From a virus (taxonomy: Duplodnaviria; Heunggongvirae; Uroviricota; Caudoviricetes): a DNA stretch of 64,000 nucleotides. Location of the stretch: IMG/VR virus record IMGVR_UViG_3300010279_000462. One strand, given 5' to 3'. Below are positions 20,421-61,085 of this stretch, piece after piece (the stretch's first letter is position 1; each line of letters begins with the position of its first letter). The position numbers and the translations under genes were made by a program. The notes under the pieces are model-generated. The model saw nothing but the letters and a program-made list of their open reading frames with translations, made no database searches and had not been told where the DNA came from.

Positions 20421-21436
20421 GAACACCGGACTTTTCAAAATACTTAACGATGTTCCTTGAACACTATCTTCCAGAACTTAAGAATGCCAGCGAGAATACC
20501 TTGGCAACATACAGCGACACTTTCTGCTATTTTCTAACTTATTGTCAGGATGTGGAAGCAATGAAAATTGAGCGAATGTCGGTCAGTGATTTCACTGCGG
20601 AACTTGTTGAAAGATACCTGCACTGGATGGAAACAAGCCAAGGCAATAGTCTTGCAACTCGGAATAACCGACTGGCTACAATCCATTCTTTCGTTAGATT
20701 TTTGCAGCCCAGGGAACCAAAACTGCTACTCAACTTTCAGAAGATTCTTGCAATTCCAACAAAGAAAGCACCACAAAAAACTGTGCAGCCTCTCTCAAAG
20801 GAATCTGTCGCTGTACTACTTCGTCAGCCAGACACATCTACTCTCAAGGGAAGAAGGGATGCAACTGTTCTATGCGTGTTGTATGATACGGCTGCTCGTG
20901 TATCGGAAATCTGCAATCTCCGCATAGAGGATGTGCGGTTTGAGAATCCTCCGCATATTCGCATAATGGGAAAAGGAATGAAAGTGCGTACAGTTCCTAT
21001 TTTGCCAGCGACAGCTATAAACTTAAAAAGCTACCTTATAGAAACGCATCGATTAAAGCCTGAGTGCTATCACTTGCCTCTTTTCGTTAACCGTGATGGA
21101 GAACCCTTTACACGGTCCGGAATCAGGTATATTTTAAACAAATACGTCAAAATGGCCCATGAAATAGATCCATCTATTCCCGAAAGTCTTAATCCCCATC
21201 GTATCAGACATACCAAGGCAATGCATCTATATGAGGCGGTTGATGACCTTATCGATGTCCGTGATTTTCTCGGCCATGCTGATATAAAAACTACAAGTAT
21301 CTACGCTAGATCCAGTCTTGCCAAAAAGAGGAAGGCACAAGAGAAGATTTCGAATTCTCCTGTGCCTGAGATGGCATCTTGGCAACAGGATAAAGGCACA
21401 CTCGAATGGCTTAAAAACTATGGGCGCAAGAAATAG
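20417..21436 (+). CDS. ritC: tyrosine recombinase RitC-like
   Basis: About 339 aa. RBS GGGAGG 7 nt upstream. ATGA overlap with ritB. Motifs HRIRHTKAM...LGHADIKTTSIY. Confidence 0.8.
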   Translation: MRTPDFSKYLTMFLEHYLPELKNASENTLATYSDTFCYFLTYCQDVEAMKIERMSVSDFTAELVERYLHWMETSQGNSLATRNNRLATIHSFVRFLQPREPKLLLNFQKILAIPTKKAPQKTVQPLSKESVAVLLRQPDTSTLKGRRDATVLCVLYDTAARVSEICNLRIEDVRFENPPHIRIMGKGMKVRTVPILPATAINLKSYLIETHRLKPECYHLPLFVNRDGEPFTRSGIRYILNKYVKMAHEIDPSIPESLNPHRIRHTKAMHLYEAVDDLIDVRDFLGHADIKTTSIYARSSLAKKRKAQEKISNSPVPEMASWQQDKGTLEWLKNYGRKK

Positions 21437-21540
21437 CAACGGAGCCCCAAATTATAGCAGGCAGATCAGGATAATTCTTGATCTGCTTTTTTATTGGTAT
21501 ACACCATTACCTATTTGATACTGACTGTAAGGGAGGCGGA

Positions 21541-21629
21541 TTTTATTGGCTTATTTTCTATGACAAATCTTTATTATATGCCCAAACTATTCCAGATAAG
21601 ACGAAAAAAACTATGGGCAAAGAAACACC
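21541..21629 (+). repeat. RIT right terminal inverted repeat
   Basis: Reverse complement aligns with 17976-18064. The outer 26 bp are exact and the inner part is imperfect. Confidence 0.7.
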
Positions 21630-21651
21630 ATTATCGGTTGCAATACATAAT

Positions 21652-21729
21652 GGCGTCGCACTGCCATGTGTCTATTTTGTGCTGGCCGGCATCGTGTGGG
21701 CGGCGCAGAATGCCGAGGAAACCCAATAA
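21652..21729 (+). pseudogene. displaced native 3' end of the C5-MTase gene (encodes GVALPCVYFVLAGIVWAAQNAEETQ*)
   Basis: About 70% nt identity to the element-borne MTase 3' end at 17976-18040. Its protein tail parallels GVSLPIVFFVLSGIVWAANKDFC*. Confidence 0.55.
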
Positions 21730-21859
21730 AACGGCCTGCTGTATGATGAGGTACCAGAACCCCATGATACAGTGGGCATACATATCGGATGATCCTGCAC
21801 AACCGTGTCTGGCACGATTTGTGTAATGGGTCGAACATGAGAAATGTCGAAAAATGGCC

Positions 21860-21890
21860 TTGCTATTTCATCGATTCAGAGCAATATATG
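21860..21890 (+). promoter_or_regulatory. promoter cassette copy (TTGCTA-N17/18-ATATAT)
   Basis: TGGCCTTGCTATTT, same family as copies at 23161, 25060 and 27084. Confidence 0.5.
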
Positions 21891-21923
21891 TGCTACCGAA
21901 AATAAAGAAGGGAGCACAAAACC

Positions 21924-23006
21924 ATGAAAAAGTACGTTTTGAACATCGATGACCGCAAGGCACTGGTAGGCCGCCTGATGGAGCTGACTGGGCTGAGTTC
22001 CCAGTACACCTATATGCCGCGGTGTGCCTACCTTGTCGGCAACTACACCGTTGAGAAGGAGGGAACGCTTGTGACGGACGAAACCGCAGACCAGCAGGTC
22101 ATTGAGACCCTGCTGAACGAGGGCATCATCGTGGACCCTGATATGCCGACCCAGCAGCCGAGTGTGGCAGAAGCACCGCAGGACGAGATGCCCGGCGAGG
22201 TGACCGAACAGACCGATGCCGAGGAGGAAGCAACCGCCGAGGAATCCTCGGATGTTGAGGAAACCGATGACGAGGAGGAAGATGACACCCCTGATGAATC
22301 CACGGAGTCCGAAAGCGAGGATGTGGATGACCTGACGGTCAGCGTTCCTATGGCGGGTCACACTCCACAGAGCATCCGCAACTTCCTGAACCTGATGTAC
22401 AGCCGCGGACCGCTGCTGAACAAGGCTCTGGGAACGAATTTCTCGGTATCGGATGCTTTGCTGGAAGCCTTGGATCAGGCGACCATCCGCACGGTGAATG
22501 AGATGCTGGATGAGCTGGAGGAGTACCGCCTCGGTGCGGGAGATACCGGCATGACCGGCATCCTCATCCTGCCGGATAAGATCAGCCTGTGCTTCGCCGG
22601 ACCGCTGAGTTCGGAACAGGTGCGCGTCTGCACCCAGCTGACTTCCGCCATGAACCGCATGGCGATCACCCAGAAGCGGATTCAGGCAAAGACCGTGAAC
22701 GATGAGAACGAGAAGTACGCTTTACGCATCTGGCTCATCCGCTTGGGTCTGAATGGCAACGAACACAAGGAACTGCGCAGAGTCCTGATGCAGAACCTTT
22801 CCGGCCATGCCGCCTTCCGCACGGCAGAGGAAGCTGAGAAGTTCCGTATCAAGGAAAAGGCAAAGCGCGACAAGCTGAAAGCCGCGAAACAGGCGGCACA
22901 GGGCGGCGACGCCGATGCCGGGGAAACGGGCGAGGCGGAAGCAGACGCGCCCACACAGCCCGACTGTGGGGCGGACACGGCGCAGATGCTGGAAGCGGGA
23001 GCGTAA
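21924..23006 (+). CDS. protein with amidoligase C-terminal-like domain and acidic linker (paralog of the downstream amidoligase C-terminus)
   Basis: C-terminal ~110 aa (…NDENEKYALRIWLIRLGLNGNEHKELRRVLMQNL…) align with the amidoligase C-terminus (…TDNEKYAMRCWMLRLGFIGDEFKTAREILLRNM…). D/E-rich segment in the middle. Confidence 0.6.
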   Translation: MKKYVLNIDDRKALVGRLMELTGLSSQYTYMPRCAYLVGNYTVEKEGTLVTDETADQQVIETLLNEGIIVDPDMPTQQPSVAEAPQDEMPGEVTEQTDAEEEATAEESSDVEETDDEEEDDTPDESTESESEDVDDLTVSVPMAGHTPQSIRNFLNLMYSRGPLLNKALGTNFSVSDALLEALDQATIRTVNEMLDELEEYRLGAGDTGMTGILILPDKISLCFAGPLSSEQVRVCTQLTSAMNRMAITQKRIQAKTVNDENEKYALRIWLIRLGLNGNEHKELRRVLMQNLSGHAAFRTAEEAEKFRIKEKAKRDKLKAAKQAAQGGDADAGETGEAEADAPTQPDCGADTAQMLEAGA

Positions 23007-30782: not shown

Positions 30783-30804
30783 AGGAAAAAGGAGGCGGGA
30801 AAGT

Positions 30805-32022
30805 ATGGTTGTGCGAAAAGAATACCTTGATCAGCTTTGGGCATGGAAAGATGAGCAGCAGATTAAGGTTGTGACCGGAATTCGACGCTGTGGAAAGTCT
30901 GTACTTTTGGAACAGTATCAGCAACGTCTTTTAGAAGAGGGGGTTGCACCGGAACAGATTATTTCAATCAATTTTGAAGACATGGATAATGAGCCTTTGA
31001 AGGATTATAGGGAACTGTATCGGTATCTCAAGGAGCATTTGTGCGTTGGTAAAATGACCTATATCTTTTTGGATGAAATTCAGGAAGTTGAGTATTTTGA
31101 AAAGGTGGTCGACAGTCTTTATATCCGAGATGGTGTGGACATCTATATTACAGGCTCGAATGCTTATATGTTGTCAAGTGAGCTTGCGACTCTTTTGTCA
31201 GGTCGATATACAGAAATAAAGATGCTGCCGCTTTCATTCCGCGAATATAGCGCTGTGACAGGTTTGCCGAAAGAAGAAGGTTTTGCGGAGTTTATGAAAA
31301 CCGGCGGAATTCCGTATGTGGCTGCAATGAACCGCACAGATGACAAGGTAAATCAATATCTTGAAGGAATTTATAACACTGTTATCATAAAAGATATTGA
31401 GCAGCGGCAGGCAAGACGAGAAAAAGAAGGCGGAAGACGAAAAATCACGGATATTACGCTGCTGAAGACAATTGCACGATATCTCGCAAGTGTAATCGGT
31501 AGCCCGGTATCTATGAAGAGCATAACTGATTATCTGACATCAGCAGGAAGAAAGGTTTCACAGAACACAGTTAGCGATTATGTTGAAGCATTAACGGAAT
31601 CGTTCGTCTTTTACCCGGTAGAACGCTTTGACATTGTTGGAAAGCAGATTCTAAAGGTCAATAATAAGTTTTACATGGTCGATATGGGAATCAGGAACCA
31701 CATTCTTCCAAGAAAGCGTTATGATCTTGGATTTACCATTGAAAATATTGTGTTCCTTGAACTGACACGAAGAGGAGGACAAATCAATATAGGAAAATAT
31801 GGCTCCACAGAAGTAGATTTTGTGGTACAGAAGGAAGGCGTTCTGACTTATTATCAGGTGACAGCTGACATGACAGCCGAAGAAACATTTGAACGAGAGA
31901 TGCGGCCTTTGCGTAGCATCCAGGACAACTATGAAAAGATTGTATTGACACTGGATCGGTTCTCTCTTGGAAATTACGACGGCATAAAAGTCGTGAATGT
32001 CATTGACTGGCTATTGACATGA
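30805..32022 (+). CDS. AAA+ ATPase (DUF4143-type ATP-binding protein)
   Basis: Walker A GIRRCGKS and Walker B IFLDEIQ. In a low-GC island. Confidence 0.75.
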   Translation: MVVRKEYLDQLWAWKDEQQIKVVTGIRRCGKSVLLEQYQQRLLEEGVAPEQIISINFEDMDNEPLKDYRELYRYLKEHLCVGKMTYIFLDEIQEVEYFEKVVDSLYIRDGVDIYITGSNAYMLSSELATLLSGRYTEIKMLPLSFREYSAVTGLPKEEGFAEFMKTGGIPYVAAMNRTDDKVNQYLEGIYNTVIIKDIEQRQARREKEGGRRKITDITLLKTIARYLASVIGSPVSMKSITDYLTSAGRKVSQNTVSDYVEALTESFVFYPVERFDIVGKQILKVNNKFYMVDMGIRNHILPRKRYDLGFTIENIVFLELTRRGGQINIGKYGSTEVDFVVQKEGVLTYYQVTADMTAEETFEREMRPLRSIQDNYEKIVLTLDRFSLGNYDGIKVVNVIDWLLT

Positions 32023-32270
32023 AGAGGATGCGTATGAATGATGCAAACTTCGGTCCGAAGAAACAAGATGGCAATGCCAATCGGGGTACCACTGATAAAA
32101 TGAGCGTTACGGAATCGCTCACAGGAATTCTAAAAGATGAAAACCTTGAGGCACTAAAAGCGGAGAGGATAAAAGAAAAGTACGAAACTGTTTAATACAC
32201 GATATATTTCAAGGACTTCTTCGGAGGTCCTTTTTCTTTTGCTCATTTTCAAAGAAGGGAGGGAAAGCCA

Positions 32271-32750
32271 ATGGCTACCAGAGGCAGAAAACCAAAGCCA
32301 ACCGCTATCAAGGAACTGGAAGGCAATCCGGGCAAGCATCCGTTGAATGCCAGCGAACCGAAGCCCAACAAGAAAGCACCGGCCTGTCCGAAATGGCTGG
32401 AGCCGGAAGCGAAAAAAGAATGGCGGCGACTCGCCAAGCAGATGGAAGCCATCGGCATCCTGACCGAAGTGGACATGGCGGCCTTTGCCGGTTACTGTCA
32501 GGCATACGCCAGATGGAAAGAAGCCGAAGAATTCATCACCCAGCACGGCAGCATCGTCAAGACCCCGTCCGGCTACTGGCAGCAGGTGCCGCAGGTATCC
32601 ATTGCTCAAACCTACTTGAAAATCATGAACAAGTTTGCAGAGCAGTTCGGTCTGACCCCTTCTTCCCGAAGCCGGATCATTGCATCGGACGAAAGCCCTG
32701 CGGATGCGACCGATGAGATGGAGAATCTGCTGGGAGGAGGTGGCAGCTGA
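32271..32750 (+). CDS. terminase small subunit, P27 family
   Basis: N-terminal GRKPKPTAIKELEGNPGKHPL and overall P27-family pattern. Directly upstream of TerL. Confidence 0.8.
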   Translation: MATRGRKPKPTAIKELEGNPGKHPLNASEPKPNKKAPACPKWLEPEAKKEWRRLAKQMEAIGILTEVDMAAFAGYCQAYARWKEAEEFITQHGSIVKTPSGYWQQVPQVSIAQTYLKIMNKFAEQFGLTPSSRSRIIASDESPADATDEMENLLGGGGS

Positions 32751-34375
32751 TGGCAGAAACCAGACCGAAAAACTACCCTAAGCTGAAGGACTACAAGCCC
32801 AGCCGGTTCATGCTGCCGACCTGCCACTATGATGAAGCTAAGGCTGACCGGGCGGTGACCTTCATTGAGAACCTGCGCCATACAAAAGGCAAGTGGGCGG
32901 GCAAGCGGTTCTGGCTCTTGCCTTGGCAGGAACAGATCATCCGGGATGTGTTCGGCATTGTGGATGAGCGCGGCAACCGTCAGTTCCGCACAGCCTATGT
33001 GGAGATTGGCAAGAAGAACGGAAAGTCCGAGCTTGCCGCTGCGGTGGCTCTGTATCTGCTTTTTGCCGACAACGAACCCTCTGCAGAAGTGTACGGCGCA
33101 GCCGCCGACCGCCAGCAGGCATCCATCGTTTTCGATGTCGCCCACCAGATGGTGCAGATGACCCCGGCTCTTTTGAAACGCTGCAAGATCATGGCGGCGA
33201 CCAAGCGTATCGTCAATTACGGCAATGCCGGATTCTATCAGGTGTTGTCGGCAGAAGTCGGAACGAAACACGGCTTGAACGTGTCCGGCCTTGTGCTGGA
33301 TGAAGTCCATGCGCAGCCCAACCGCAAGCTCTATGATGTCCTGACCAAAGGCTCTGGTGATGCACGAGAACAGCCGCTGTTCTTCCTGATCACCACGGCC
33401 GGCACGGATAAGGAGAGCATCTGCTACGAGCTGCACATGAAAGCCCTTGACCTTCTGGCAGGGCGCAAGATTGACCACACCTTTTACCCGGTCGTCTATG
33501 GTCTGACCGATGAGGACGACTGGCACGATGAAGCCAACTGGTACAAAGCGAATCCCTCACTCGGACAGACCATCCGCATTGAGCGTGTCCGGGATGCTTA
33601 CCGGGAAGCCCTGGATAACCCGGCAGAGGAAAATGTGTTCAAGCAGCTTCGTTTGAATATGTGGGTGTCCTCGCTGACTCGCTTCATTCCGGAACACATC
33701 TACAACCTTGGCGATCAGCCAATAGACATGGAAGCCCTAAAAGGCCGTGACTGTTATGGTGGACTGGACTTGTCCAGCACCGGCGACATCACGGCTTTTG
33801 TGCTGATGTTCCCGCCGAGGACGCCGGACGAGAAGTACATCATGCTTCCGTTTTTCTGGATTCCGGAGGACACGATTCCCCAGCGTGTGCGCAGGGCATC
33901 CGTTCCATATGATATCTGGCATCAGCAGGGCTGCCTCATGGCAACCGAGGGCAATGTCATCCACTACGGATTCATTGAGGAGTTCATCAAGGAGCTGGGT
34001 GAAAAGTACCACATCCTCGAAATCGCCTTTGACCGCTGGGGTGCGGTGCAGATGACTCAGAACCTTGAAGGGATGGGCTTCACGGTCGTACCTTTTGGAC
34101 AGGGCTTCAAGGATATGAGCCCGCCCACCAAAGAGTTCTATAAGCTCCTGATGGAAGGACGCATCGTCCACGGCGGCAATCCTATCATGGCATGGATGGC
34201 GGGAAATGTGGTCGTGGACACAGATCCGGCTGGCAACATCAAGCCGACCAAGGCAAAGTCGCCGGAGAAGATCGATGGTATCGTCGCTGCGATCATGGCA
34301 CTTGACCGCTGCATCCGAAACGAAGGACAGCAGCAAGGCAGCATCTACGATGAGCGCGACATGATCGTTTTTTAA
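32750..34375 (+). CDS. terminase large subunit
   Basis: 541 aa. Terminase ATPase and nuclease organisation. ATGA overlap with TerS. Confidence 0.85.
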   Translation: MAETRPKNYPKLKDYKPSRFMLPTCHYDEAKADRAVTFIENLRHTKGKWAGKRFWLLPWQEQIIRDVFGIVDERGNRQFRTAYVEIGKKNGKSELAAAVALYLLFADNEPSAEVYGAAADRQQASIVFDVAHQMVQMTPALLKRCKIMAATKRIVNYGNAGFYQVLSAEVGTKHGLNVSGLVLDEVHAQPNRKLYDVLTKGSGDAREQPLFFLITTAGTDKESICYELHMKALDLLAGRKIDHTFYPVVYGLTDEDDWHDEANWYKANPSLGQTIRIERVRDAYREALDNPAEENVFKQLRLNMWVSSLTRFIPEHIYNLGDQPIDMEALKGRDCYGGLDLSSTGDITAFVLMFPPRTPDEKYIMLPFFWIPEDTIPQRVRRASVPYDIWHQQGCLMATEGNVIHYGFIEEFIKELGEKYHILEIAFDRWGAVQMTQNLEGMGFTVVPFGQGFKDMSPPTKEFYKLLMEGRIVHGGNPIMAWMAGNVVVDTDPAGNIKPTKAKSPEKIDGIVAAIMALDRCIRNEGQQQGSIYDERDMIVF

Positions 34376-34399: not shown

Positions 34400-34615
34400 A
34401 TGAAGTATCTGATGAGTGCAGAGTGGTGGCACGCCGCCGGCGTCCGTGCCGCAAAGACCATGTTCCAGACCGGCGCGGCTCTGGTAGTGACCCAGATGCC
34501 GGGCGGAAGCGTGGACTGGATGGCGGTCGGCAGTGCCGTGATCGTGGCGGGCATTGCCTCGCTTGGAACCAGCCTTGCCGGTTTGCCGGAGCTGGAGAAG
34601 GGAGATAACGCCTGA
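34400..34615 (+). CDS. small hydrophobic protein
   Basis: 71-aa ORF rich in A/G/V with likely TM segments. Lies between TerL and portal. Confidence 0.4.
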   Translation: MKYLMSAEWWHAAGVRAAKTMFQTGAALVVTQMPGGSVDWMAVGSAVIVAGIASLGTSLAGLPELEKGDNA

Positions 34616-39193: not shown

Positions 39194-39511
39194 ATGACCC
39201 ACGAAGAAGTCAAAACTATGGTGGAGGAAATGGGCTATCCTTGTGCGTATGACCATTTCGCAGAGGGGGAAAGTCCTGACCCGCCATTCATCTGCTTCCT
39301 TTATCCGAAAGCCGAGAATTTCGGTGCGGACGACATCGTGTATCACCATTTTAACCGGCTGCACATTGAAGTCTACACAGATTACAAAGACCCGGATATG
39401 GAAGCGGCAATCGAAGAAGTCCTGACCCGGCACGAGCTTTTTTATGAAAAGAGCGAGGTCTGGATCGAGACTGAAAAAATGTATGAAGTCCTGTATGAGC
39501 TAATCGTGTGA
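39194..39511 (+). CDS. putative tail terminator/completion protein
   Basis: Call based on position only. 105 aa. Confidence 0.4.
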   Translation: MTHEEVKTMVEEMGYPCAYDHFAEGESPDPPFICFLYPKAENFGADDIVYHHFNRLHIEVYTDYKDPDMEAAIEEVLTRHELFYEKSEVWIETEKMYEVLYELIV

Positions 39512-39547
39512 CGCTGATGCAGGGCTGTTTTTATGGAGGAATAAGCA

Positions 39548-40159
39548 ATGGCCAAGAAAAGCAATAAGGTCAAGTACGGCCTGAAAAACTGCCATTACGC
39601 CAAGGCAACCTTTGACGAGGATGGCAGTGTCACCTACGCAAAGCCTGTGCGTATCCCCGGTGCGGTCAGCCTGTCGATGGATGCCAACGGCGATATTGAA
39701 CCGTTCTATGCGGACAACATCGCGTACTATGTCGTGAACAACAACTCCGGCTATGAGGGTGACCTCGAAATCGCGCTGATCCCTGAGAGCTTCCTCACCG
39801 ACATTATGCACGAGGAGCTGGACGGCAACGGTGTGCTGGCGGAGAACGCTAACGCGGAGCTGGAGCATTTCGCCTTCCTGTTTGAATTCGATGGCGACCA
39901 GCGGCACATCCGTCATGTCATGTACAACTGCGTGGCATCCCGTCCGGCTGTGGAGGGTGACACCAACGAGGACAGCAAGGAGGTCAAGACCGACAAGCTG
40001 ACCATTCAGGCAACCCCACTGGCGAACGGCTACGTCAAGGCCAAGACCGGCACTGACACCACCGATGATGTCTACAACAAGTGGTACGAAAAGGTGTATG
40101 AGCCGCAGGCGGAAGCATCCAGTGTGACTGACCCGGAGGAAGTAGACCCCCAGGGCTGA
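39548..40159 (+). CDS. major tail protein
   Basis: 203 aa. Located upstream of the chaperone/TMP pair. RBS GGAGGAATAA. Confidence 0.65.
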   Translation: MAKKSNKVKYGLKNCHYAKATFDEDGSVTYAKPVRIPGAVSLSMDANGDIEPFYADNIAYYVVNNNSGYEGDLEIALIPESFLTDIMHEELDGNGVLAENANAELEHFAFLFEFDGDQRHIRHVMYNCVASRPAVEGDTNEDSKEVKTDKLTIQATPLANGYVKAKTGTDTTDDVYNKWYEKVYEPQAEASSVTDPEEVDPQG

Positions 40160-40215
40160 TTTGAACTGTGGCAGGGCATTGGCTCTGTCACTACATGAAA
40201 AAGGAGAATTTTGAT

Positions 40216-41049
40216 ATGAAAAAAAGTCGTGTATTCCCTCTGTTCGCTGTCATCGTGATCGCATTCCTGCTGATTCGGTCGCTGACCATTGTGCCGACCG
40301 GCTACACAGGCGTTAAGACCAGCTTCGGTCAGATTCAGGAAACCACTATTCAGAGTGGCAAGCTCAACTTTACGATCCCCTTTGTGCAGAGCATCCACAC
40401 CGTCAACAACAAGCAGCAGGACAAGCATATTGAGAACCAGATCTGGGGCGAAGCCTCCGACAAGACTCCGGTGTATGCGGCAGATGTCATCGTGACCTAT
40501 CAGGTATTGCCTGAAAAGTCCGCGTGGCTGTATGCCAATGTGTCCGACATCAAGAATCTGCTTGGGGATGAGCTGGTCGCATCTGCTGTGAAATCGGCTA
40601 TGTCTGAGCTGGGTCCCGAAGATGTGACCAATCGCACCAAGGTGGAGCCTCTGGCACAGCGGAAGCTGGCTGAGTCCCTTAACCAGAAGTACGGTGAGGG
40701 TGCTGTGTTCGTCAACAAGGTGGTCATCAACGACATGGATTTCGAGGAAGCGTACAATGTTGCCATCCAGCAGAAATCCATTGCACAGCAGAATGCCGCC
40801 CGCCAGAAGATCGAGAATGAAGCCGCTATTGCTAAGGCAGAGGCGGACAAGCAGGTGGCCATCACCAATGCTGAGGCAGAAGCCCAGAAGACTTCCATTG
40901 CAGCCGAGGCACAGGCAGAAGCCAACCGCAAGATTACGGACAGCCTGTCTGATACGCTGATCGAGTACCAGAAGGTTCAGAAGTGGGACGGCAAGCTGCC
41001 CACCGTCAGCGGCGGCAATGCGCTGGTTAGCATCGACCCGGCAGAGTAA
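40216..41049 (+). CDS. SPFH/band-7 (prohibitin/HflC-like) domain membrane protein
   Basis: N-terminal TM helix, then an SPFH core (TGYTGVKTSFGQIQE…), then an Ala/Gln/Glu-rich coiled coil (AQQNAARQKIENEAAIAKAEAD...). Confidence 0.75.
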   Translation: MKKSRVFPLFAVIVIAFLLIRSLTIVPTGYTGVKTSFGQIQETTIQSGKLNFTIPFVQSIHTVNNKQQDKHIENQIWGEASDKTPVYAADVIVTYQVLPEKSAWLYANVSDIKNLLGDELVASAVKSAMSELGPEDVTNRTKVEPLAQRKLAESLNQKYGEGAVFVNKVVINDMDFEEAYNVAIQQKSIAQQNAARQKIENEAAIAKAEADKQVAITNAEAEAQKTSIAAEAQAEANRKITDSLSDTLIEYQKVQKWDGKLPTVSGGNALVSIDPAE

Positions 41050-41112
41050 GAATCACAGATTGAGGGCAGGAGGACTGCCCTCTTATACATTGAATATAGG
41101 AGGACAACAACC

Positions 41113-41490
41113 ATGGCAGTTACGAAGAAAATCGAGATCGATGGTCAGCAGGTGGAGTTCCGTGCAAGCGCAGCCGTGCCGCGCCTGTACCGCATCAAGT
41201 TCGGCAGAGACATCTATAAGGACCTTCGTTCTCTGGAAAAGAGTGTGGATGACGGCAACGAGGATAGCTCCGACCTCGACTTGTTCAGTCTGGAGATGTT
41301 TGAAAATATCGCCTATATCATGGCGAAGCACGCCCATCCGGATCAGGTGGCAGACACCCCGGATGAGTGGCTGGAGAACTTCAACACCTTCTCCATCTAC
41401 CAGATCCTTCCCCAGTTGATCGAGCTGTGGGGTCTGAATGTGCAGACGGAGGTAGAGGCAAGAAAAAACCTCGCAAAAGTGAGCGGGTAA
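41113..41490 (+). CDS. tail assembly chaperone (gpG-like)
   Basis: 125 aa. Lies immediately upstream of the TMP and ends with the slippery heptamer A_AAA_AAC. Confidence 0.7.
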   Translation: MAVTKKIEIDGQQVEFRASAAVPRLYRIKFGRDIYKDLRSLEKSVDDGNEDSSDLDLFSLEMFENIAYIMAKHAHPDQVADTPDEWLENFNTFSIYQILPQLIELWGLNVQTEVEARKNLAKVSG

Positions 41491-41654
41491 TGACCACCCC
41501 GCTCTTTATGCTGCGCTGTGTACAGCTCGGTATCAGCATCGCCGACCTCGACCTGCTGACCATTGGGTTGGTCAATGATATGTTCACGGAGCGGCAGAAC
41601 GATGAGTATCCGTATCAGGAATTGGCAAGCCAGTCGGACTTCGACCGATTCTGA
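41469..41654 (+). CDS. tail assembly chaperone -1 frameshift extension (gpGT-like)
   Basis: Slippery A AAA AAC at 41463-41469 in the zero frame. The -1 frame stays open to 41654. Confidence 0.55.
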   Translation, partial: PRKSERVMTTPLFMLRCVQLGISIADLDLLTIGLVNDMFTERQNDEYPYQELASQSDFDRF

Positions 41655-41714
41655 GAACCAGACGCTCGTGCTTATTTGAAGTGTGAAATAAGCACGGTAG
41701 GTGAGTGAGGGCGG

Positions 41715-41754
41715 AAAATAAAAAATCCCACCCAGCCGTGCACAGCTGAGTGGG
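41715..41754 (-). terminator. rho-independent terminator on the minus strand, downstream of the TA cassette
   Basis: CCCACCCAGC...GCTGAGTGGG stem. The minus-strand reading is followed by ATTTTTTATTTT. Confidence 0.55.
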
Positions 41755-41853
41755 AAAAGAAGGTGGCCCGTAGGTCATCTTCCCGGTCTCGGACCTCGCA
41801 AGGTTGCCGAAAACTGATCGCGTTTAGAATTATAACCGACTTGGCAGCAACAG

Positions 41854-42189
41854 TCAACCGATTAGACCGTGCTTGGAAGCTCTTTTCTGGGCAAGATCAT
41901 ATACTTCTTCATCGGCACGAACACCAATGACGATTACCATCATGGATGATTCCGTGCGGCGAAGTTGGTAAACGACTCGTAAGCCCGCGGAACGGAGCTT
42001 GATTTTAAGCAATCCGGCAAGATTGGTTCCACTGTGATTGCCGAGGGGCTTACCGTAGCCTTGTTCATCAACAGGCAGAGGATTCTGCTGAACTTTTTTG
42101 ATGGCCTTCAGAACAAGGACGCGCTGGCTTCCATCAAGGTCTTTCAGATCTTTTTCTGCTTCGGGAAGATATTCAAGTTTCCAGCTCAT
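41854..42189 (-). CDS. RelE/ParE-family type II toxin
   Basis: 111 aa. RelE-like profile (KPLGNHSG...GLLKIKLRSAGLRVVYQ). ATGA overlap with the antitoxin. Confidence 0.75.
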   Translation of the reverse strand: MSWKLEYLPEAEKDLKDLDGSQRVLVLKAIKKVQQNPLPVDEQGYGKPLGNHSGTNLAGLLKIKLRSAGLRVVYQLRRTESSMMVIVIGVRADEEVYDLAQKRASKHGLIG

Positions 42190-42518
42190 TCGATTTCAAC
42201 CTCGTCAAAACCGGCGAGATCGTCTTCCGTGACACCGAGACGACGGTTCATTTCTTCCTCAGAAATTAAAGTGGAGGGATCAAAATGTGCCATACGCTCA
42301 GATGCAATCGCCATCAAGCGGGCATCGTTCAATTCATCCATCAGTCGGACATACTCATCCGGGGAAATAAGGACGCATTCAGCAACGTTGTTTTTCATAA
42401 CAACTTTTGCACCGTATTGTTTGACGTCCTCAAAAATTTTTCCTGCAAGGCCGCGGTTGAATTGCGTGATGGGAACCGTATTCGTAATAGCACTCATAAC
42501 AGAAGCCATGGTCGTCAA
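42186..42518 (-). CDS. Phd/YefM-family antitoxin
   Basis: 110 aa. ITQFNRG...AECVLISPDEYVRLMDEL pattern. Lies upstream of the toxin. Confidence 0.7.
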   Translation of the reverse strand: MTTMASVMSAITNTVPITQFNRGLAGKIFEDVKQYGAKVVMKNNVAECVLISPDEYVRLMDELNDARLMAIASERMAHFDPSTLISEEEMNRRLGVTEDDLAGFDEVEIE

Positions 42519-42700
42519 CTCCTTTCTTCATCATCATTGTAGCACTTATCTGCAAAATCGTCAACCATAATATTGACCAATTTGCTGACAAATATATTGT
42601 ATGCTAAAAAGACGACTTTGATGCAAACGTCAATATATGGAGCCTGTCTGCCTTCGTGCAGATGGGCTTTTTTCATGCCAACAAGGAGGTGGTTATCCGC

Positions 42701-45700
42701 ATGGCATCCAGAATCGCAGGCATTACCGTTGAAATTGGCGGTGACACTACAAAACTCTCCAAAGCATTGGAAGGCGTCAACAAGTCCATCAAGACAACGC
42801 AGTCTGAGTTGAAGGATGTCAACAAGCTCTTAAAGCTCGACCCCTCCAATACGGAAGCGGTGACCCAGAAGCAGCGGATGCTGAAGGAAGCCATCGAAGC
42901 CACCAAGGAGAAGCTGACTACCCTCAAGACGGCGGCTCAACAGGCCAATGAACAACTGGCTGACGGCAAGATCACCCAGGAGCAGTATGATGCACTCCAG
43001 CGTGAGATCGTGGAAACGGAGGAACAGCTCAAATCCCTGCAGGAACAAGCGGCGGTCACCAATGCGACCCTTGCCAAGATCGATGCGGTGGGTGACAAGC
43101 TGCAAACTGTGGGGTCCAAGGTCGAGGACACCGGCAAAAAGTTCCTGCCGGTAACGGCGGCTGTCACCGGCCTTGGTACAGCGGCGGTCAAGACGGCAGC
43201 GGACTTTGATACAGAAATGAGCAAGGTCGCCGCTATTTCCGGCGCAACGGGAGATGACTTTGACCAGCTCCGTGCCAAAGCCCGCGAGATGGGCGCCAAG
43301 ACCAAGTTCTCTGCATCCGAGGCGGCATCGGCCATGGAGTACATGGCTATGGCCGGCTGGAAGACCGGGGATATGCTGGACGGTATCGAAGGTATCATGA
43401 ACCTCGCGGCCGCATCGGGTGAAGACCTCGCCACGACCTCGGATATCGTTACGGATGCGCTGACTGCCTTTGGCCTGTCGGCTTCGGATTCCGGGCATTT
43501 CGCAGATATCCTCGCAGCGGCTTCGTCCAATGCCAACACGAATGTCTCCATGATGGGCGAGACGTTCAAATACTGTGCGCCTATCGCGGGTGCTTTGGGA
43601 TTCTCCGCAGAGGACACCGCCGAAGCCATCGGCCTAATGGCAAACTCTGGCATCAAGGCATCTCAGGCCGGCACATCACTGCGCTCCATCATGAACAACC
43701 TTGCCGGTGAAGTTACCTTTGTGGGTAAGAACATCGGTGAGGTCACCATTGCCACCAGCAATGCAGACGGCAGTATGCGCAGCCTAAACGACATCCTGGC
43801 AGATTGCCGTGTGGCTTTCTCCGGGTTGTCGGAATCTGAGAAAGCTGCGAATGCAGAAGCACTGGTCGGCAAGAACGCCATGTCCGGCTTCCTGGCTCTA
43901 ATGAATGCCAGCCAGTCGGACATCGACAAGCTGAGCGGTGCCATTGAAAACTGCGATGGCGCATCCGAGAGCATGGCGACTACCATGCAGGATAACCTCA
44001 ATGGTCAGCTCACCATTCTGAAATCTCAGTTGGAGGAGCTGGCTATTTCTTTTGGCGACCTGCTCATGCCGACCATCCGTAAGATCGTGTCGGCGGTACA
44101 GGCATTCGTGGACAAGCTCAACAGCATGGATGACAGCACCAGAGAAACCATCATCAAGGTGGCGGCTTTGGCGGCGGCTATTGGTCCGCTCCTGATCGTA
44201 TTAGGCAAGACCATATCGACAGTCGGTACAGCCCTCAAGGGATTCAGTTCTCTGGCAAAGGGCATCCGGCTGCTGTCCACCCATGTCGGCAGCGCAAGCG
44301 GCTTGTTTGGAAAACTGGGCGCGGCACTCGGCGGGATCTCCGCCCCGGTCATGACCGTTGTTGCGGTCATCGGAGTTCTGGTCGCAGCCTTTGTGAATCT
44401 CTGGAACACCAATGAGGAGTTCCGCACGGCGATCACCAACATCTGGAACGGCATTGTGGAAACGGTACGCGGCTTCTGTGACCAGCTGACCCAGCGAATC
44501 AATGACCTCGGCTTTGACTTCAAGGACATTGTCGAAGTCCTGAAAGCTGTGTGGGATGGCTTCTGTCAGGTGTTAGCTCCTGTGTTCGAGGGCGCGTTTC
44601 AGGTCGTATCCACGGTGTTGAGTACTGTGCTGGATACCCTGATCGGTCTGTTCGATGTTTTCTCCAATCTGTTCCAAGGAAACTGGAGCGGAGCGTGGGA
44701 AGCAGTCAAGGGTATCTTCTCCGGCATCTGGGAGGGCATCCAGTCCATCTTCTCTACGGTGCTGGACACCTTGAAGGGCGTGGCAGATGTGTTCCTCGGC
44801 TGGTTCGGCACGGATTGGAACTCGGTCTGGGAGAGTATCAAGTCGTTCTTTGAAGGTATCTGGACGGGAATCAGCACGTTCTTCTCCGGCGTTCTGACTG
44901 GAATTCAGACGACCGCGTCCAACATCTGGACCGACATTTCGACATTTTTCACAGGGGTGTGGACCGGGATCAAGACCTTCTTTGAGGGGATCTGGAATGG
45001 TATCGTTTCTTTCTTTACTGGAAAGACCAGTGAGATGGACGAGAACACCACATCCACCTTCAATGGCATCTCGTCGTTTCTCGGCGGCATCCTGTCTGGC
45101 TTGCAGACGGTCTTCTCCACGGTGTGGGAAGCCATCTCTGGCGTGGTCGGCGGTGTCATGGATGCCATTTCCTCGGTCATCTCCACCGTAATGAACCTGA
45201 TCTCCGGCGACTGGTCATCGGCCTGGGAGGGTATCAAGTCCACGGCTTCTACCGTGTGGGAAGACATTTCCAGTGTGGTTTCGACCGCATGGGAGGGCAT
45301 CTCGTCCTTTGTGTCGGGTGCTGTTTCCACGCTGGGCAGCGGACTGTCCACTGCATGGGAAGGCATCAAGACAACCGCAGACACAGCGTGGGAAGGGCTG
45401 AAGACCGGCATCTCGGATGTCTGGTCGAACCTGCAAACCACTGTGTCCACAGCGGTATCCACACTGGGCAGTAATCTTTCTACGGCGTGGGATGGCATTA
45501 AGAGTACGGCATCGACGGCATGGGATGGTATCAAAAGTGCCATCACCTCGGTGTGGGACGGCATCCAGTCGGGTGTGACCTCTGCCGTTGATACGGTCGC
45601 CACCGGGTTATCCAGCGCATGGGAAGGAATTCAGTCCACGGCAAGCACTGCATGGGAGGGCATCAAGTCCGGCATTTCCAGTGCGTGGGAAGGAATCTCC

Positions 45701-48655
45701 GGCTTCTTTGGCGGCATCTGGGATTCCATTACCGGCAAGACCAGCGATTCCACTTCTCAGATGAAGACCGACACCTCCAATGCGTGGTCGGGTGTGGAGG
45801 CAGAAGCACAGACCGCATGGTCTGGTGTCTCCACTTCCGTGTCGGCTGCCTGTTCTGGTATGGCGCAGTCGGTGACAAGCCAGATCGACAGCATCAAGGC
45901 ATCCATGTCTGCGGCATGGTCCGGAATCGCCTCGGAAACGACCGCAGCCTGGAACAATGTCAAGACCAGCCTTGCAACGGCATGGTCGGGCATCTCCTCC
46001 ACCATGACTGCCAGCCTGAATGGTGTAAAAGCAGCGGTCAGCAACGGCTGGACACAGCTTCGCAGCCTGACGGTTTCCAGCTGGTCCGGCATCCAGTCCA
46101 GCCTGACGGCGAGCTGGAATTCCATCAAGACGGCGACCACGACGGCAGTCAATACCGTGAAGACTTCGGTCACAACGGGGTGGACGGATCTGCGCGGCCT
46201 GACCACTTCCAGCTGGAGTTCCATCCAGAATGCGCTGAATACGAGCTGGAACTCCATCAAGAGCGCAACGACAGCATCGGTTAATGCGGTGAACACCTCG
46301 GTCACGACCGGGTGGACGAATCTGCGGAGCTTGACTGCTTCGAGCTGGAACTCTATACAGACTGCACTGAACACAAGCTGGAACAACATCCGGAGTGCGA
46401 CCACGAGTTCGGTCAATGCGGTGAATACCTCTGTCACGGCCGGATGGAACAATCTGCGCAGCATGACTGCCAGCAGTTGGTCGAGTATCCAGTCGGCACT
46501 CAGTTCCATCTGGAACAGCATTAAGTCTACGGCTTCTTCGGCGGTCAACGCTGTGAAATCCGCTGTGTCCTCTGGATGGAGCGGGGTGAAGTCCTCGACA
46601 AGCTCCACCTTCAGCAGTGTGCAGTCGGCAGTGTCAGGTGCAATGTCGAATCTGCGCTCTACGGTATCCTCCGGTGTGTCCAGCGTCAAGAGCAGTTTCA
46701 ACTCGCTGAGTTCCATTGCATCCTCGGCATACAGCTGGGGCGCAGATATCTGCTCTCAGATGGCAGCCGGTGTCCGGGCGGCAGCTGGCAGGGTCGTTCA
46801 GGCGGCGGAAAATGTGGCAAGCAAGGTCAGAAGCCTCTTGCACTTCTCTGTTCCTGACACCGGTCCTCTGTCCGATGCGGATGAGTATATGCCTGACTTC
46901 ATGAAGCTGCTGGCAAGCGGCATCAAGAAGAATCAGGACAAGGTCATCAAGGCAGTCAAGAAGTTGTCCAGCGGCATGAACACCAACCTGACGACCCCGG
47001 TCGGTGACATGAGCGATAAGGTCAAGTCGGTGGTTGGCGGCTTTGCCAGTACGATTTCCGGCAGCACCTATCGGGTCAGTTCTGCGGCAAGTGGGCTGGC
47101 AAGCGGCATCAAAAATGGTCTGTTGAACGGTCTATCGGATCTTCAGACGGAGTTCAAGGGTGTCTGGGACGGACTCGAAAATACCACGAAGGCCGCCATG
47201 GACAACATCAGCGATGAAGTCAAGCATGGAATGTCCGAGATGGCAAACTCCATGGGAGAGCTTGGTTCTCAGACCAGCTCCCTTGGCTCCCTGATCCGTA
47301 ACCTTGGCGACACCTTCAATAACGATTTCCTTTCTAACCTCGGCAGTGGCATCGGCAAGGTCGGCGATACCGTGAGCAATGTCATGGGTATCGTGGACAA
47401 GCTGGGGCAGATGAAGAACACGGTCAGCTCTTTGGGCGAGACCTTCAAGAATCTGACCGGCGCGCTTGGCACAGATTCGGGCGGCGGATTGTTGTCGAAA
47501 TTGGGGCAGCTTGTGTCGCAGCTCGGCAGCAGCAACAGCTCTGGCATCATCTCCAACTTCGGCAACCTCATCTCCGGACTGACCTCGAAGATGGGCGGTC
47601 TGGGACAGGGCATCTCCGGCGTTCTCTCGAAGCTGGGTAGCCTTGGTTCCAGCGGAAGCGGAATCCTGTCGAGTCTCGGCAGCGTTGCTTCCGGTGTGCT
47701 TTCCAAGCTCGGCGGTGTGGGCAGCAGTCTGTCGGGAATCCTTTCCGGAGTTGGCTCCTCGCTGGGCGGCATCGCGGCTTCTGCGGGTTCGGCGCTTACC
47801 GGGCTGTTCGGCTCGGTCGGAACAACGGTGTCCGGCTTGGCGGCAGGAGCCGGTTCCGCACTGGCCGGCATCGCTTCCTCAGCTGGCGGTTTTCTCGCTT
47901 CGGCTGGTACGGCGCTTGCTGGCGTGGCCGGCCCTGCGGGTATTGCTGTAGCGGCGGTCGCCGGTGTCGGACTTGGCGTGAAAGCCCTGTGGGATAACTG
48001 CGACAGCTTCCGGGACGGTGTGACGAATATCTGGAATGGCATCAAGAACACCTTTGCCAGCGGCGTTGCTGCCGTAAAGCAGGGCGTATCGAATGCGGCT
48101 TCCTTTGTCGGCAACATCGCTTCTTCCATCTGGGGCGGTGTCAAGAACGTGGCATCCTCGGCATGGAACTGGGGCAAGGACATCGTAAGCGGTATCGCTG
48201 GCGGCATCCAAAAGGGTGTCAGCTGGTTCGGCAACGCTGTCAGGAGTGTGGCGGACGGTATCCGTTCCTTCCTCCACTTCTCTGTCCCGGATGAAGGCCC
48301 TCTGGCAGATGCCGATACCTATATGCCGGACTTCATGCAGCTTATGGCAAAGGGAATTCAGGGCAATACCGGCAATGTGCTGGATTCTGTGAAAACTCTG
48401 GTCGGAAAAGTCCATGAAGGCATGGCGGATATCAGCACATTTCGTCTGCCGGAAGTGAATATTCCACAATTCAATGCGAATGGGTGGAATATTCCGCAGC
48501 CCGCGCTGGCTGGCGGTACGACCAGAACGACCAATCTGGGCGGTGTTCACATCACCGTGAATGGCTACAATGCCCGGAACGATGATGAGCTGGCACAGAT
48601 CGTGGCAGACAAGATCAATGACATGATTGATCAGGATGATTCAGTCTACAAGTAA
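42701..48655 (+). CDS. tail tape measure protein (1984 aa)
   Basis: RBS AAGGAGGTGG. N-terminal TMP domain, long low-complexity repeat core (WxGIKS repeats) and duplicated C-terminal modules. Confidence 0.85.
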   Translation: MASRIAGITVEIGGDTTKLSKALEGVNKSIKTTQSELKDVNKLLKLDPSNTEAVTQKQRMLKEAIEATKEKLTTLKTAAQQANEQLADGKITQEQYDALQREIVETEEQLKSLQEQAAVTNATLAKIDAVGDKLQTVGSKVEDTGKKFLPVTAAVTGLGTAAVKTAADFDTEMSKVAAISGATGDDFDQLRAKAREMGAKTKFSASEAASAMEYMAMAGWKTGDMLDGIEGIMNLAAASGEDLATTSDIVTDALTAFGLSASDSGHFADILAAASSNANTNVSMMGETFKYCAPIAGALGFSAEDTAEAIGLMANSGIKASQAGTSLRSIMNNLAGEVTFVGKNIGEVTIATSNADGSMRSLNDILADCRVAFSGLSESEKAANAEALVGKNAMSGFLALMNASQSDIDKLSGAIENCDGASESMATTMQDNLNGQLTILKSQLEELAISFGDLLMPTIRKIVSAVQAFVDKLNSMDDSTRETIIKVAALAAAIGPLLIVLGKTISTVGTALKGFSSLAKGIRLLSTHVGSASGLFGKLGAALGGISAPVMTVVAVIGVLVAAFVNLWNTNEEFRTAITNIWNGIVETVRGFCDQLTQRINDLGFDFKDIVEVLKAVWDGFCQVLAPVFEGAFQVVSTVLSTVLDTLIGLFDVFSNLFQGNWSGAWEAVKGIFSGIWEGIQSIFSTVLDTLKGVADVFLGWFGTDWNSVWESIKSFFEGIWTGISTFFSGVLTGIQTTASNIWTDISTFFTGVWTGIKTFFEGIWNGIVSFFTGKTSEMDENTTSTFNGISSFLGGILSGLQTVFSTVWEAISGVVGGVMDAISSVISTVMNLISGDWSSAWEGIKSTASTVWEDISSVVSTAWEGISSFVSGAVSTLGSGLSTAWEGIKTTADTAWEGLKTGISDVWSNLQTTVSTAVSTLGSNLSTAWDGIKSTASTAWDGIKSAITSVWDGIQSGVTSAVDTVATGLSSAWEGIQSTASTAWEGIKSGISSAWEGISGFFGGIWDSITGKTSDSTSQMKTDTSNAWSGVEAEAQTAWSGVSTSVSAACSGMAQSVTSQIDSIKASMSAAWSGIASETTAAWNNVKTSLATAWSGISSTMTASLNGVKAAVSNGWTQLRSLTVSSWSGIQSSLTASWNSIKTATTTAVNTVKTSVTTGWTDLRGLTTSSWSSIQNALNTSWNSIKSATTASVNAVNTSVTTGWTNLRSLTASSWNSIQTALNTSWNNIRSATTSSVNAVNTSVTAGWNNLRSMTASSWSSIQSALSSIWNSIKSTASSAVNAVKSAVSSGWSGVKSSTSSTFSSVQSAVSGAMSNLRSTVSSGVSSVKSSFNSLSSIASSAYSWGADICSQMAAGVRAAAGRVVQAAENVASKVRSLLHFSVPDTGPLSDADEYMPDFMKLLASGIKKNQDKVIKAVKKLSSGMNTNLTTPVGDMSDKVKSVVGGFASTISGSTYRVSSAASGLASGIKNGLLNGLSDLQTEFKGVWDGLENTTKAAMDNISDEVKHGMSEMANSMGELGSQTSSLGSLIRNLGDTFNNDFLSNLGSGIGKVGDTVSNVMGIVDKLGQMKNTVSSLGETFKNLTGALGTDSGGGLLSKLGQLVSQLGSSNSSGIISNFGNLISGLTSKMGGLGQGISGVLSKLGSLGSSGSGILSSLGSVASGVLSKLGGVGSSLSGILSGVGSSLGGIAASAGSALTGLFGSVGTTVSGLAAGAGSALAGIASSAGGFLASAGTALAGVAGPAGIAVAAVAGVGLGVKALWDNCDSFRDGVTNIWNGIKNTFASGVAAVKQGVSNAASFVGNIASSIWGGVKNVASSAWNWGKDIVSGIAGGIQKGVSWFGNAVRSVADGIRSFLHFSVPDEGPLADADTYMPDFMQLMAKGIQGNTGNVLDSVKTLVGKVHEGMADISTFRLPEVNIPQFNANGWNIPQPALAGGTTRTTNLGGVHITVNGYNARNDDELAQIVADKINDMIDQDDSVYK

Positions 48656-59813: not shown

Positions 59814-60245
59814 ATGCAGAATGTGATCGACAAGATCCAGTTCGCTTTTGCGGCACTGGGCGGCTTTCTCGGTTGGTTTTTCGGAGGCTTTGATGGCTTC
59901 CTCTACGCGCTCATCATCTTTGTGGTGACCGACTACTTTACTGGCATCCTTGCGGCAGGCATTCGCAAGGAGTTGTCCAGCGAGGTGGGCTTCAAGGGCA
60001 TCGCAAAGAAGGTGTGCATCTTCCTGCTGGTGGGCATGGCGAATGTCATTGACACGCAGGTACTCCAGAACGGAGCAGCCATCCGCACGGCAGTGATCTT
60101 CTTCTATCTGTCCAATGAAGGTCTGTCTATTCTGGAGAACTCCGCCGTCATCGGAATTCCCATCCCGGACAAGCTGAAGGAGATGCTGATCCAGCTGACC
60201 AAGGAAAAGCACATCCCTGAAAAGAGCGATGAGGACGATAATTGA
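59814..60245 (+). CDS. holin (TcdE/phage_holin_4-like)
   Basis: 143 aa. Three TM segments and a charged C-terminus. Confidence 0.7.
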   Translation: MQNVIDKIQFAFAALGGFLGWFFGGFDGFLYALIIFVVTDYFTGILAAGIRKELSSEVGFKGIAKKVCIFLLVGMANVIDTQVLQNGAAIRTAVIFFYLSNEGLSILENSAVIGIPIPDKLKEMLIQLTKEKHIPEKSDEDDN

Positions 60246-61031: not shown

Positions 61032-61060
61032 TGCCCGCTGAAACAAATCAACCATGCACG

Positions 61061-61085
61061 GCCCGGAGCAATCCGGGCTTTTTTC
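61061..61085 (+). terminator. rho-independent terminator
   Basis: GCCCGG-AGCAAT-CCGGGC followed by TTTTTTC. Confidence 0.65.

Follow-up and report, generated by a model that had tools for sequence, protein, structure and literature searches.

An SPFH/Band-7 membrane protein gene inserted between the tail tube and tail chaperone genes of a gut phage lineage

The viral genome IMGVR_UViG_3300010279_000462 (Caudoviricetes), analyzed here as one stretch of 64,000 nucleotides (the window), carries an open reading frame (ORF) of 277 amino acids within its tail operon, running on the + strand from an ATG at 40216 to a stop codon at 41047–41049. The window is a phage genome, with a terminase (32271–34375), portal, ClpP-type prohead protease, capsid, connector proteins, and tail terminator. 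The ORF sits between the gene for the major tail (tube) protein and the tail assembly chaperone genes (41113–41654), downstream of which lie the gene for a 1999-residue tape measure protein (42656–48655) and then those for distal tail and receptor-binding proteins. A holin (59814–60245), an amidase/glucosaminidase endolysin (60917–62605), and a serine recombinase are also encoded. An earlier reading made from the letters of the DNA (the sequence-only reading) had described the ORF as an SPFH/prohibitin-like membrane protein whose gene, between the major tail gene and the tail chaperone, looks like a moron insertion. We are highly confident that the ORF encodes an SPFH protein and that it was inserted between the tube and chaperone genes. 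The features of the locus are collected in Table 1.

Table 1. Features of the SPFH gene and its flanks (positions in the window)
Feature	Position	Strand	Evidence
Major tail (tube) protein gene, upstream flank of insertion	39548–40159	+	phrog_88, E=2.9e-58; Pfam L_lac_phage_MSP
Upstream hairpin GTGGCAGGGC-ATTG-GCTCTGTCAC, then CTACATGAAA	40168–40191	+	RNAfold −15.3 kcal/mol; site kept in 94 related loci
Ribosome-binding site AAGGAG, 9 nt 5' of ATG	40201–40206	+	Read from sequence
SPFH/Band-7 membrane scaffold protein, 277 residues, zero cysteines	40216–41049	+	PF01145, phrog_200, AlphaFold2, Foldseek, dN/dS
N-terminal transmembrane anchor (predicted), residues 6–22, after MKKSR	40231–40281	+	AlphaFold2 helix, hydropathy
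SPFH alpha/beta core, residues 23–176	40282–40743	+	Pfam stretch 25–211, AlphaFold2 secondary structure
One long uninterrupted Ala/Glu/Gln-rich helix (66 residues, 178–243), predicted cage-wall coiled coil	40747–40944	+	AlphaFold2
C-terminal motif K-W-D-G-K-L-P, residues 256–262	40981–41001	+	Conserved across homologues
Downstream hairpin GAGGGCAG-GAGGA-CTGCCCTC, then TTATACATTG and chaperone ribosome-binding site	41062–41082	+	RNAfold −16.7 kcal/mol; element in 95 related loci
Tail assembly chaperone (G-like), downstream flank of insertion	41113–41490	+	phrog_709, E=2e-38
Slippery heptamer A_AAA_AAC, −1 frameshift into T-like ORF	41463–41469	+	Sequence and frames

The ORF is a genuine SPFH/Band-7 protein of the HflC/prohibitin class. 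The sequence-only reading had staked its assignment on the SPFH profile, and the match holds: Pfam Band_7 (PF01145) aligns with residues 25–211 at E=8.3e-18 and 65.5 bits (cut-off 23.6), and phrog_200 matches at E=6.9e-38. An AlphaFold2 monomer model built from 35 homologues (predicted local distance difference test score 82.5) agrees with the Pfam and Foldseek matches on the architecture described earlier, an N-terminal transmembrane (TM) helix, an SPFH/Band-7 core, and a long Ala/Gln/Glu-rich coiled coil. The AQQNAARQKIENEAAIAKAEADKQVAITNAEAEAQK stretch quoted in that description falls inside the modeled long helix, after which the model has a short helix (residues 246–256) and a disordered tail. 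Foldseek comparison of the model with the PDB returned prohibitin, HflC/K, erlin, stomatin, and QmcA at E values of 1e-12 to 1e-15, with a probability of 1.00 to these and to flotillin, and in a profile search of PDB sequences HflC ranks first (E=2.7e-17). Within the C-terminal motif, Trp257 and Gly259 are near-invariant in the 35 homologues, down to 31% identity. The coiled-coil region contains direct repeats (D3), three 39-nt (13-residue) units at 40826, 40865, and 40904 that span 40826–40923. A 238-residue variant, P0085, present in no fewer than 24 contigs, one of them from NCBI, is exactly 39 residues shorter at these repeats, a loss that would shorten the predicted cage wall.

The start of the ORF is well defined. 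All relatives in the 35-homologue comparison share the same MKK... start, so that a longer reading from a GTG at 40168, which would overlap the upstream hairpin, is not needed and was dropped.

Phages that lack the gene show that its segment is extra DNA. When the tail tube and chaperone were compared by tblastn with 50,697 phage records, homologues of both appeared in Candidatus Heliusvirales (the "NatCom" records), in the Terrisporobacter phage TPDSL_ph1, and in Streptococcus Javan prophages. The tail tube is 54–67% and the chaperone 50–72% identical to these SPFH-less relatives, in which the chaperone homologue is the gene that follows the tail-tube gene. In each listed record with both genes, no more than about 70 nt separates the two matches, and in the five SPFH-less records read the annotated coding sequences are 1–13 nt apart, compared with a gap of 953 nt in the window. 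Because the tube and chaperone genes abut in the relatives without SPFH, the ~950-bp SPFH segment is an insertion. The location given by the sequence-only reading is correct on both sides (phrog_88 upstream, phrog_709 downstream), and the comparison of related phages that it had proposed separates loci with the gene from loci without it.

Within the lineage that carries SPFH, the order tube-SPFH-chaperone is present in every locus long enough (80 IMG/VR loci and contigs from ENA). As a check on bias, 80 loci were fetched by the chaperone alone (78–97% identity), and SPFH lies directly upstream of the chaperone in 79 of them; the single exception is a truncated chaperone beside a recombinase on a rearranged contig. 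Pairwise Nei-Gojobori comparison of each relative with the window gene yields a ratio of nonsynonymous to synonymous substitution rates (dN/dS) of 0.096 for SPFH (dS 0.92, 96 comparisons), almost the same as for the tail tube (0.094; dS 0.78, 87 comparisons), with the tail terminator at 0.062 (dS 0.95, 83 comparisons) and the chaperone at 0.152 (dS 0.81, 94 comparisons). The SPFH gene has thus diverged alongside its neighbors and is constrained like an essential structural gene. It is old, under strong purifying selection, and fixed in its own lineage. A pseudogene or passenger reading was dropped in view of the dN/dS of 0.096, and the implication of a recent passenger in the earlier moron proposal does not stand.

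The insert is framed by a pair of RNA hairpins. In both spacers that flank the SPFH gene, a stable hairpin is followed by (C)TACAT and then by a ribosome-binding site. Most relatives have one identical GGCAGGGC-UUCG-GCUCUGCC tetraloop hairpin on both flanks, and at least one divergent relative has another hairpin, GGGGYGGG-GAAA-CCYGCCCC, again on both. Across 98 related loci (981 kb), the hairpin motif occurs on the + strand at 94 upstream and 95 downstream sites and essentially nowhere else, nearly all remaining matches being the same palindromic sites seen on the opposite strand. The motif was found neither in the other spacers of the head-tail operon nor in outgroup SPFH loci, and the tube/chaperone spacer of SPFH-less relatives is too short for such a hairpin. 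Pairing in the upstream hairpin is kept in 92% of cells, including one pair with a compensatory double change from A-U to G-C, whereas slid registers all pair in at most 50% of cells. An Rfam scan of 39400–42800 at E≤1 returned zero matches, and the flanking hairpins are therefore not a known RNA family. We read them as mRNA attenuator or stability elements brought in with the insert, and they may have acted as recombination handles at insertion. In all, a ~950-bp cassette composed of hairpin, ribosome-binding site, ORF, and hairpin brought the SPFH gene into a single sub-lineage of Heliusvirales-like temperate siphophages that infect gut Clostridia. A similar arrangement is said to have been described by Arbiol and colleagues in 2010 in the "PeSL" cassettes of T4-type phages, in which short conserved intergenic stem-loops reportedly lie on both sides of an accessory gene as possible recombination handles. 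The elements of the window differ in having no evident promoter and only two copies per genome.

Two further observations concern the ends of the cassette. In three relatives (L008, at 2983–3678; L026; and one more), a 231-residue ORF lies directly after the downstream hairpin and before the chaperone, which indicates that the SPFH/chaperone junction was struck again by a mobile gene; by eye, it has HNH/AP2-like motifs typical of homing endonucleases, a putative assignment. Four other loci (L094, on the chromosome of Faecalibacterium prausnitzii strain 2, L098, L100, and L104) keep SPFH, chaperone, and tape measure beside truncated capsid or portal fragments. Their left breakpoints differ, and they share the right end, directly upstream of SPFH. 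These loci are probably degraded prophages or products of recombination at the upstream hairpin, and less likely assembly artefacts.

Whether the cassette should be called a moron depends on which part of the term is meant. The gene is extra DNA, as the sequence-only reading had it, but its own promoter and terminator were not found and its base composition does not stand out (G+C content 0.54, compared with 0.56 for the tail tube and 0.53 for the chaperone). No sigma-70-like promoter was detected on the + strand from 38500 to the SPFH ORF in a scan with an Escherichia coli-type consensus, which could miss a real promoter. No canonical terminator flanks the gene either, since both hairpins are without a U-tract and were not called as terminators. 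The same scan did find the strong promoter and terminator of a toxin-antitoxin pair on the minus strand. The SPFH gene is therefore not a moron in the strict (Juhala/Hendrix) sense, and not a textbook one. Lying in line with the operon and without a detected promoter of its own, it is more likely to be expressed along with the late genes than from a repressed prophage.

The family to which the gene belongs is large and widely spread. A search of 1.84 billion cluster representatives yielded 3843 relatives at E≤0.001. Human gut metagenomes carry the element very often, in clusters that count 951 and 3249 members. When species-representative genomes were scanned with a 9-sequence alignment, homologues of 39–60% identity were found mostly in Lachnospiraceae, Oscillospiraceae, and other Clostridia. 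Chromosomal homologues (40–56% identity) are flanked by housekeeping genes (ABC transporters, sigma factors, tRNA synthetase, lysyl-phosphatidylglycerol synthase), and all-against-all clustering of 456 neighbors of the 40–56% homologues revealed no recurrent position-tied family. The nearest relatives outside the lineage are thus chromosomal genes of Clostridia and accessory genes elsewhere in other phages. A homologue is present in 153 phage records, and SPFH genes also occur in giant viruses. The closest outgroup (53% identity) lies in another phage between thymidylate synthase and DNA methylase genes, upstream of the terminase; in the Faecalibacterium phages Toutatis and Lelie, Fusobacterium phiFN37, and Kosakonia Kc166B, the gene is in early or replication regions; and in MT835486.1, the closest GenBank phage homologue (41.7% identity), it comes directly after two endolysin-like genes. 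These varied positions indicate that the family behaves as a mobile accessory gene and that a place in the tail operon is atypical, as had been proposed, with other phage SPFH genes found in early, replication, or nucleotide-metabolism regions.

Some members of the family call for separate mention. In four singleton metagenomic ORFs (P0086, P0114, P0126, and P0245), an SPFH that is truncated at its 5' end runs into the N-terminus of ClpP, TerS, DUF932, or a Bro/ANT antirepressor; all four lack the N-terminal part of SPFH and so were read as chimeric assemblies or internal deletions, set aside as uninformative fusions that inflate the apparent domain diversity of the family. The 16.8-kb head-tail loci, SPFH included, of L097 (Blautia faecis DFI.3.66) and L101 (Faecalibacterium intestinale CLA-AA-H281) are 98.4% identical in nucleotide sequence. 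The two hosts belong to different orders of Clostridia, and Clostridium fessum, Lawsonibacter, and Wujia genomes carry close copies as well; this points either to an unusually broad prophage host range or to contamination or mis-binning.

Several characterized SPFH systems can be compared with the window protein. HflC and HflK have the same order of parts (a short basic N-terminus, one TM helix, SPFH domain, long helix) and the same inferred N-in/C-out topology, and a close relative of the window protein is named "regulator of protease activity HflC" by the JGI pipeline. The window gene differs in being single, phage-borne in a Clostridia host, and flanked by tail genes, with its own C-terminal motif; the protein scores far below the cut-offs of both HflC equivalog models (26.9 bits against a cut-off of 427 for NF008259 and 23.5 against 134.4 for TIGR01932). 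The prohibitins PHB1/PHB2 provide the top Foldseek match (8rrh, E ~1e-14) and share the N-terminal anchor, SPFH domain, and coiled-coil wall, and GenBank labels phage homologues "prohibitin family protein"; they are, however, eukaryotic mitochondrial hetero-oligomers of 18–20% sequence identity. The phage proteins of PHROG 200, from Staphylococcus Kayvirus, PBS1/AR9, Toutatis and Lelie, and Fusobacterium phages, are of the same family but only 24–42% identical, and they differ in their early, replication, nucleotide-metabolism, or endolysin-adjacent positions and in the "lipoprotein" label of the profile. SPFH-NfeD operons (QmcA-YbbJ, stomatin-type) share the fold, with a significant match to QmcA, but not the gene arrangement. 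QmcA faces the cytoplasm, whereas the window protein is predicted to face outward. An NfeD-like partner, suspected from the outset to be absent, was found neither among the TM-containing ORFs of the window, the subset of window ORFs that was scanned, nor among the recurrent neighbors of homologues; a Pfam scan of 115 genes that flank homologues found housekeeping families only. An NfeD1b_N match of the prohead protease (22.9 bits, cut-off 40) reflects the shared ClpP fold and was rejected. The window protein is therefore not an HflC equivalog, not of the K/C-paired type, and not NfeD-partnered.

The orientation of the protein in the membrane matters for any proposal about its function. A basic MKKSR precedes the TM helix. 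In P0211, a cellular homologue of 40% identity, the TM helix is replaced by a signal peptide with a lipobox, LTGC, and where homologues have two TM helices, a K/R-rich loop precedes the last one. These features, together with the phrog_200 label, lead us to infer an N-in orientation, with the SPFH domain facing the outside of the cytoplasmic membrane. HflK/C provides the parallel, with an extracytoplasmic SPFH domain and an HflC that extends into the periplasm (PMC12048511). The window protein has no lipobox cysteine, and indeed no cysteine at all, and is therefore signal-anchored and not a lipoprotein.

Superinfection exclusion, defense, and modulation of holin timing, the roles that the sequence-only reading had offered, stand as hypotheses. 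Taken together, these features lead us to favor, tentatively, a role in the exclusion of other phages. Given the strong ribosome-binding site and the lack of a detected promoter of its own, the protein would be produced in the late stage of lytic growth, along with the tail proteins. Inserted N-in/C-out, it would have its SPFH domain and long helix at the outer surface of the cytoplasmic membrane, the arrangement of HflK/C. There it could oligomerize to a ring or dome and so enclose part of the membrane, as the solved SPFH proteins all form membrane rings or domes (PMC12624060, PMC12478178). Membrane that is enclosed or covered in this way, or a protein caught within it, might then be unavailable to incoming siphophage tails, whose tape-measure proteins must open a channel in that membrane. 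The consequence would be superinfection exclusion, and released progeny would be spared ejecting their DNA into sibling cells and debris. Positional precedent is provided by HK97 gp15, a host-derived membrane protein with homologues on the host chromosome that is encoded in the tail operon by the chaperone genes and is a superinfection-exclusion factor (PMC3594210). Gp15 differs in being small, unrelated in sequence, and located between chaperone and tape measure, with its own promoter and terminator for prophage expression; in the window phage that junction holds a RelE/Phd pair, and the SPFH gene has no recognizable promoter.

A number of points weigh against an exclusion role. Expression that is late only gives little classical exclusion benefit, and it is in this respect that the promoter of HK97 gp15 matters; conversely, the late timing depends on a scan whose consensus may overlook a real promoter. 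Both the topology and the oligomeric state are predicted, on the basis of a monomer model and of homologues. No experiment in the literature on any phage SPFH bears on exclusion, and one report calls the role of phage SPFH unclear, with adsorption or DNA entry suggested (PMC13239085). Apart from a study of a Pasteurella virulence factor, the papers found go no further than annotation of phage SPFH genes or speculation about them. The SPFH, RelE, and Phd proteins matched 0 families in a PADLOC-DB scan at E≤0.01. The 80 IMG/VR loci were found through SPFH itself and so carry an ascertainment bias that only the chaperone-fetched set corrects. Finally, the early-region genes of other phages and the one beside endolysin-like genes are such varied contexts that a single common SPFH function is not established.

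The main rival to exclusion is control of proteolysis or lysis, in which an SPFH cage on the outside encloses host FtsH or phage holins and, by changing how membrane proteins are turned over or clustered, affects when the cell lyses or how intact its membrane stays late in infection. We regard this as possible, if doubtful. HflC is the best match among solved structures, HflK/C-FtsH is among the top fold matches, and HflK/C controls the proteolysis of membrane proteins by FtsH (PMC12048511); the equivalog scores, however, are far under their cut-offs, and the gene is single, with no hflK-hflC pair. The late co-expression that we propose would suit a lysis-related role, as would the endolysin-like neighbors in MT835486.1, but most other phage SPFH genes are in early or replication regions, a poor fit to lysis timing, and the window gene is 19 kb from the lysis cassette. 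The lineage does have a 2-TM, r1t-holin-like gene (34400–34615) in addition to its holin, and an FtsH/CII link has been proposed for the SPFH gene of a Pseudomonas satellite prophage (PMC4936722); no partner was identified here.

A quite unlikely alternative is lysogenic conversion, with transcription in the lysogen from an unrecognized promoter or by read-through and a benefit to the host such as robustness to bile or detergent or interaction with animal-host surfaces. Family members do reside on the chromosomes of many Clostridia, the element abounds in gut metagenomes, and L094, L098, and L100 retain SPFH with chaperone and tape measure beside truncated head genes. In Pasteurella multocida, an SPFH lipoprotein of a prophage island is expressed, and its deletion attenuates virulence (PMC9872710). 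Against this, the E. coli-type scan found no promoter-like site upstream, and SPFH stands in line with the late genes, unlike the adjacent toxin-antitoxin pair, which exemplifies an autonomous unit. SPFH is also found in the strictly virulent Staphylococcus Kayvirus and in the jumbo phages PBS1 and AR9, in which lysogenic conversion is impossible.

Presence in virulent and temperate phages alike, and in giant viruses, would be expected of a counter-defense factor, a scaffold that stabilizes the membrane or occupies the sites of membrane-disrupting abortive-infection effectors so that the cell lives until assembly ends. Expression within the lytic program, if our reading of the operon is correct, would also fit, and SPFH assemblies compartmentalize membranes (PMC12624060). 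Abi_2 or toxin-antitoxin cargo at the adjacent junction in relatives suggests conflict-driven turnover there. The proposal is purely conceptual, however, no known anti-defense protein being an SPFH protein, and a domain that faces outward cannot reach cytoplasmic effectors; we consider it very unlikely. A role as tail assembly factor or virion component might be suggested by the position of the gene, by selection that matches the tail tube in strength, and by the few peptides of distant SPFH homologues detected at trace level when virions of two other phages were analyzed. It is extremely improbable, given that related phages build the same tail without SPFH, that the protein carries a membrane anchor, with its SPFH domain predicted to lie outside the cell membrane, that homologues in other phages lie far from tail genes, and that the mass-spectrometry counts of 3 and 1 peptides are at contaminant level. 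The sequence-only reading had held that the protein is not a virion component, which is plausible.

Extended beyond this lineage, the exclusion reading would make phage SPFH proteins a widespread device that builds an extracytoplasmic fence or dome during infection to exclude phages, protect progeny, or blunt membrane-acting defenses, and the paired hairpin-TACAT elements a small mobile regulatory cassette that splices a gene into a gap-free late operon without disturbing it. We put this forward as a speculation that is rather unlikely to hold. What phage SPFH proteins do is the question at stake, for their genes recur across phages of many hosts and giant viruses. Phage SPFH genes themselves are already cataloged (phrog_200, the 153 phage records, many viral models), and the gene is a well-documented but ordinary accessory gene rather than a new kind of system. 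New here are the insertion point, the finding that the gene is fixed and constrained in a prophage lineage very common in the gut, the hairpin pair, and the topology argument. The gene is a good test case: it is fixed, strongly constrained, abundant in human-gut metagenomes, and present in prophages of cultured Faecalibacterium and Blautia isolates, and its anatomy predicts late co-expression, an outward-facing domain, and an mRNA delimited by hairpins. A functional result would inform both phage-phage exclusion in the gut and bacterial SPFH cages generally.

The genes around the cassette have features of their own. The slippery heptamer lies within the last codons of the phrog_709 gene, and the −1 frame ORF (41367–41654) matches phrog_3033 (E=4.5e-23), which together we take to be the conserved G/GT tail-chaperone arrangement of siphophage tail operons. 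The RelE/ParE-Phd toxin-antitoxin pair (41854–42518, − strand) lies between the tail chaperone and the tape measure; its promoter (42564–42536) is near consensus, TTGACG-17-TACAAT with a TG extension, its terminator has a 13-bp stem (41755–41726), and the G+C content of the antitoxin gene is 0.46, below that of the surrounding tail genes. This chaperone/tape-measure junction, the same one that holds the HK97 gp15 moron, is a variable cargo site, with Abi_2 in L007, other ORFs in NatCom phages and TPDSL_ph1, and nothing in NatCom_42228 and NatCom_38182. The tape measure protein has approximately four hydrophobic segments and long arrays of W-x-x-I/G-rich repeats; it is twice the length of those of SPFH-less relatives (~970 residues), varies strongly even among close relatives (53–92% identity), and is split into two ORFs in L004.

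Upstream, cargo also varies among Heliusvirales at the TerL-portal junction. In the window this junction holds the r1t-holin-like gene (+ strand), which encodes 71 residues with two hydrophobic segments; its match to the r1t holin family, 26.7 bits, is slightly below the Pfam cut-off, and it lies far from the lysis cassette at 59.8–62.6 kb. It is present in 42 loci of the SPFH lineage and absent from the SPFH-less relatives fetched. Two islands of low G+C content (0.40–0.43 compared with ~0.55) occur within the phage, at 18000–22000 and 30800–32200. They hold a tyrosine integrase (18184–19443) and an AAA_14/DUF4143 ATPase (30805–32022, directly upstream of the small terminase), and they look like nested mobile or cargo elements.

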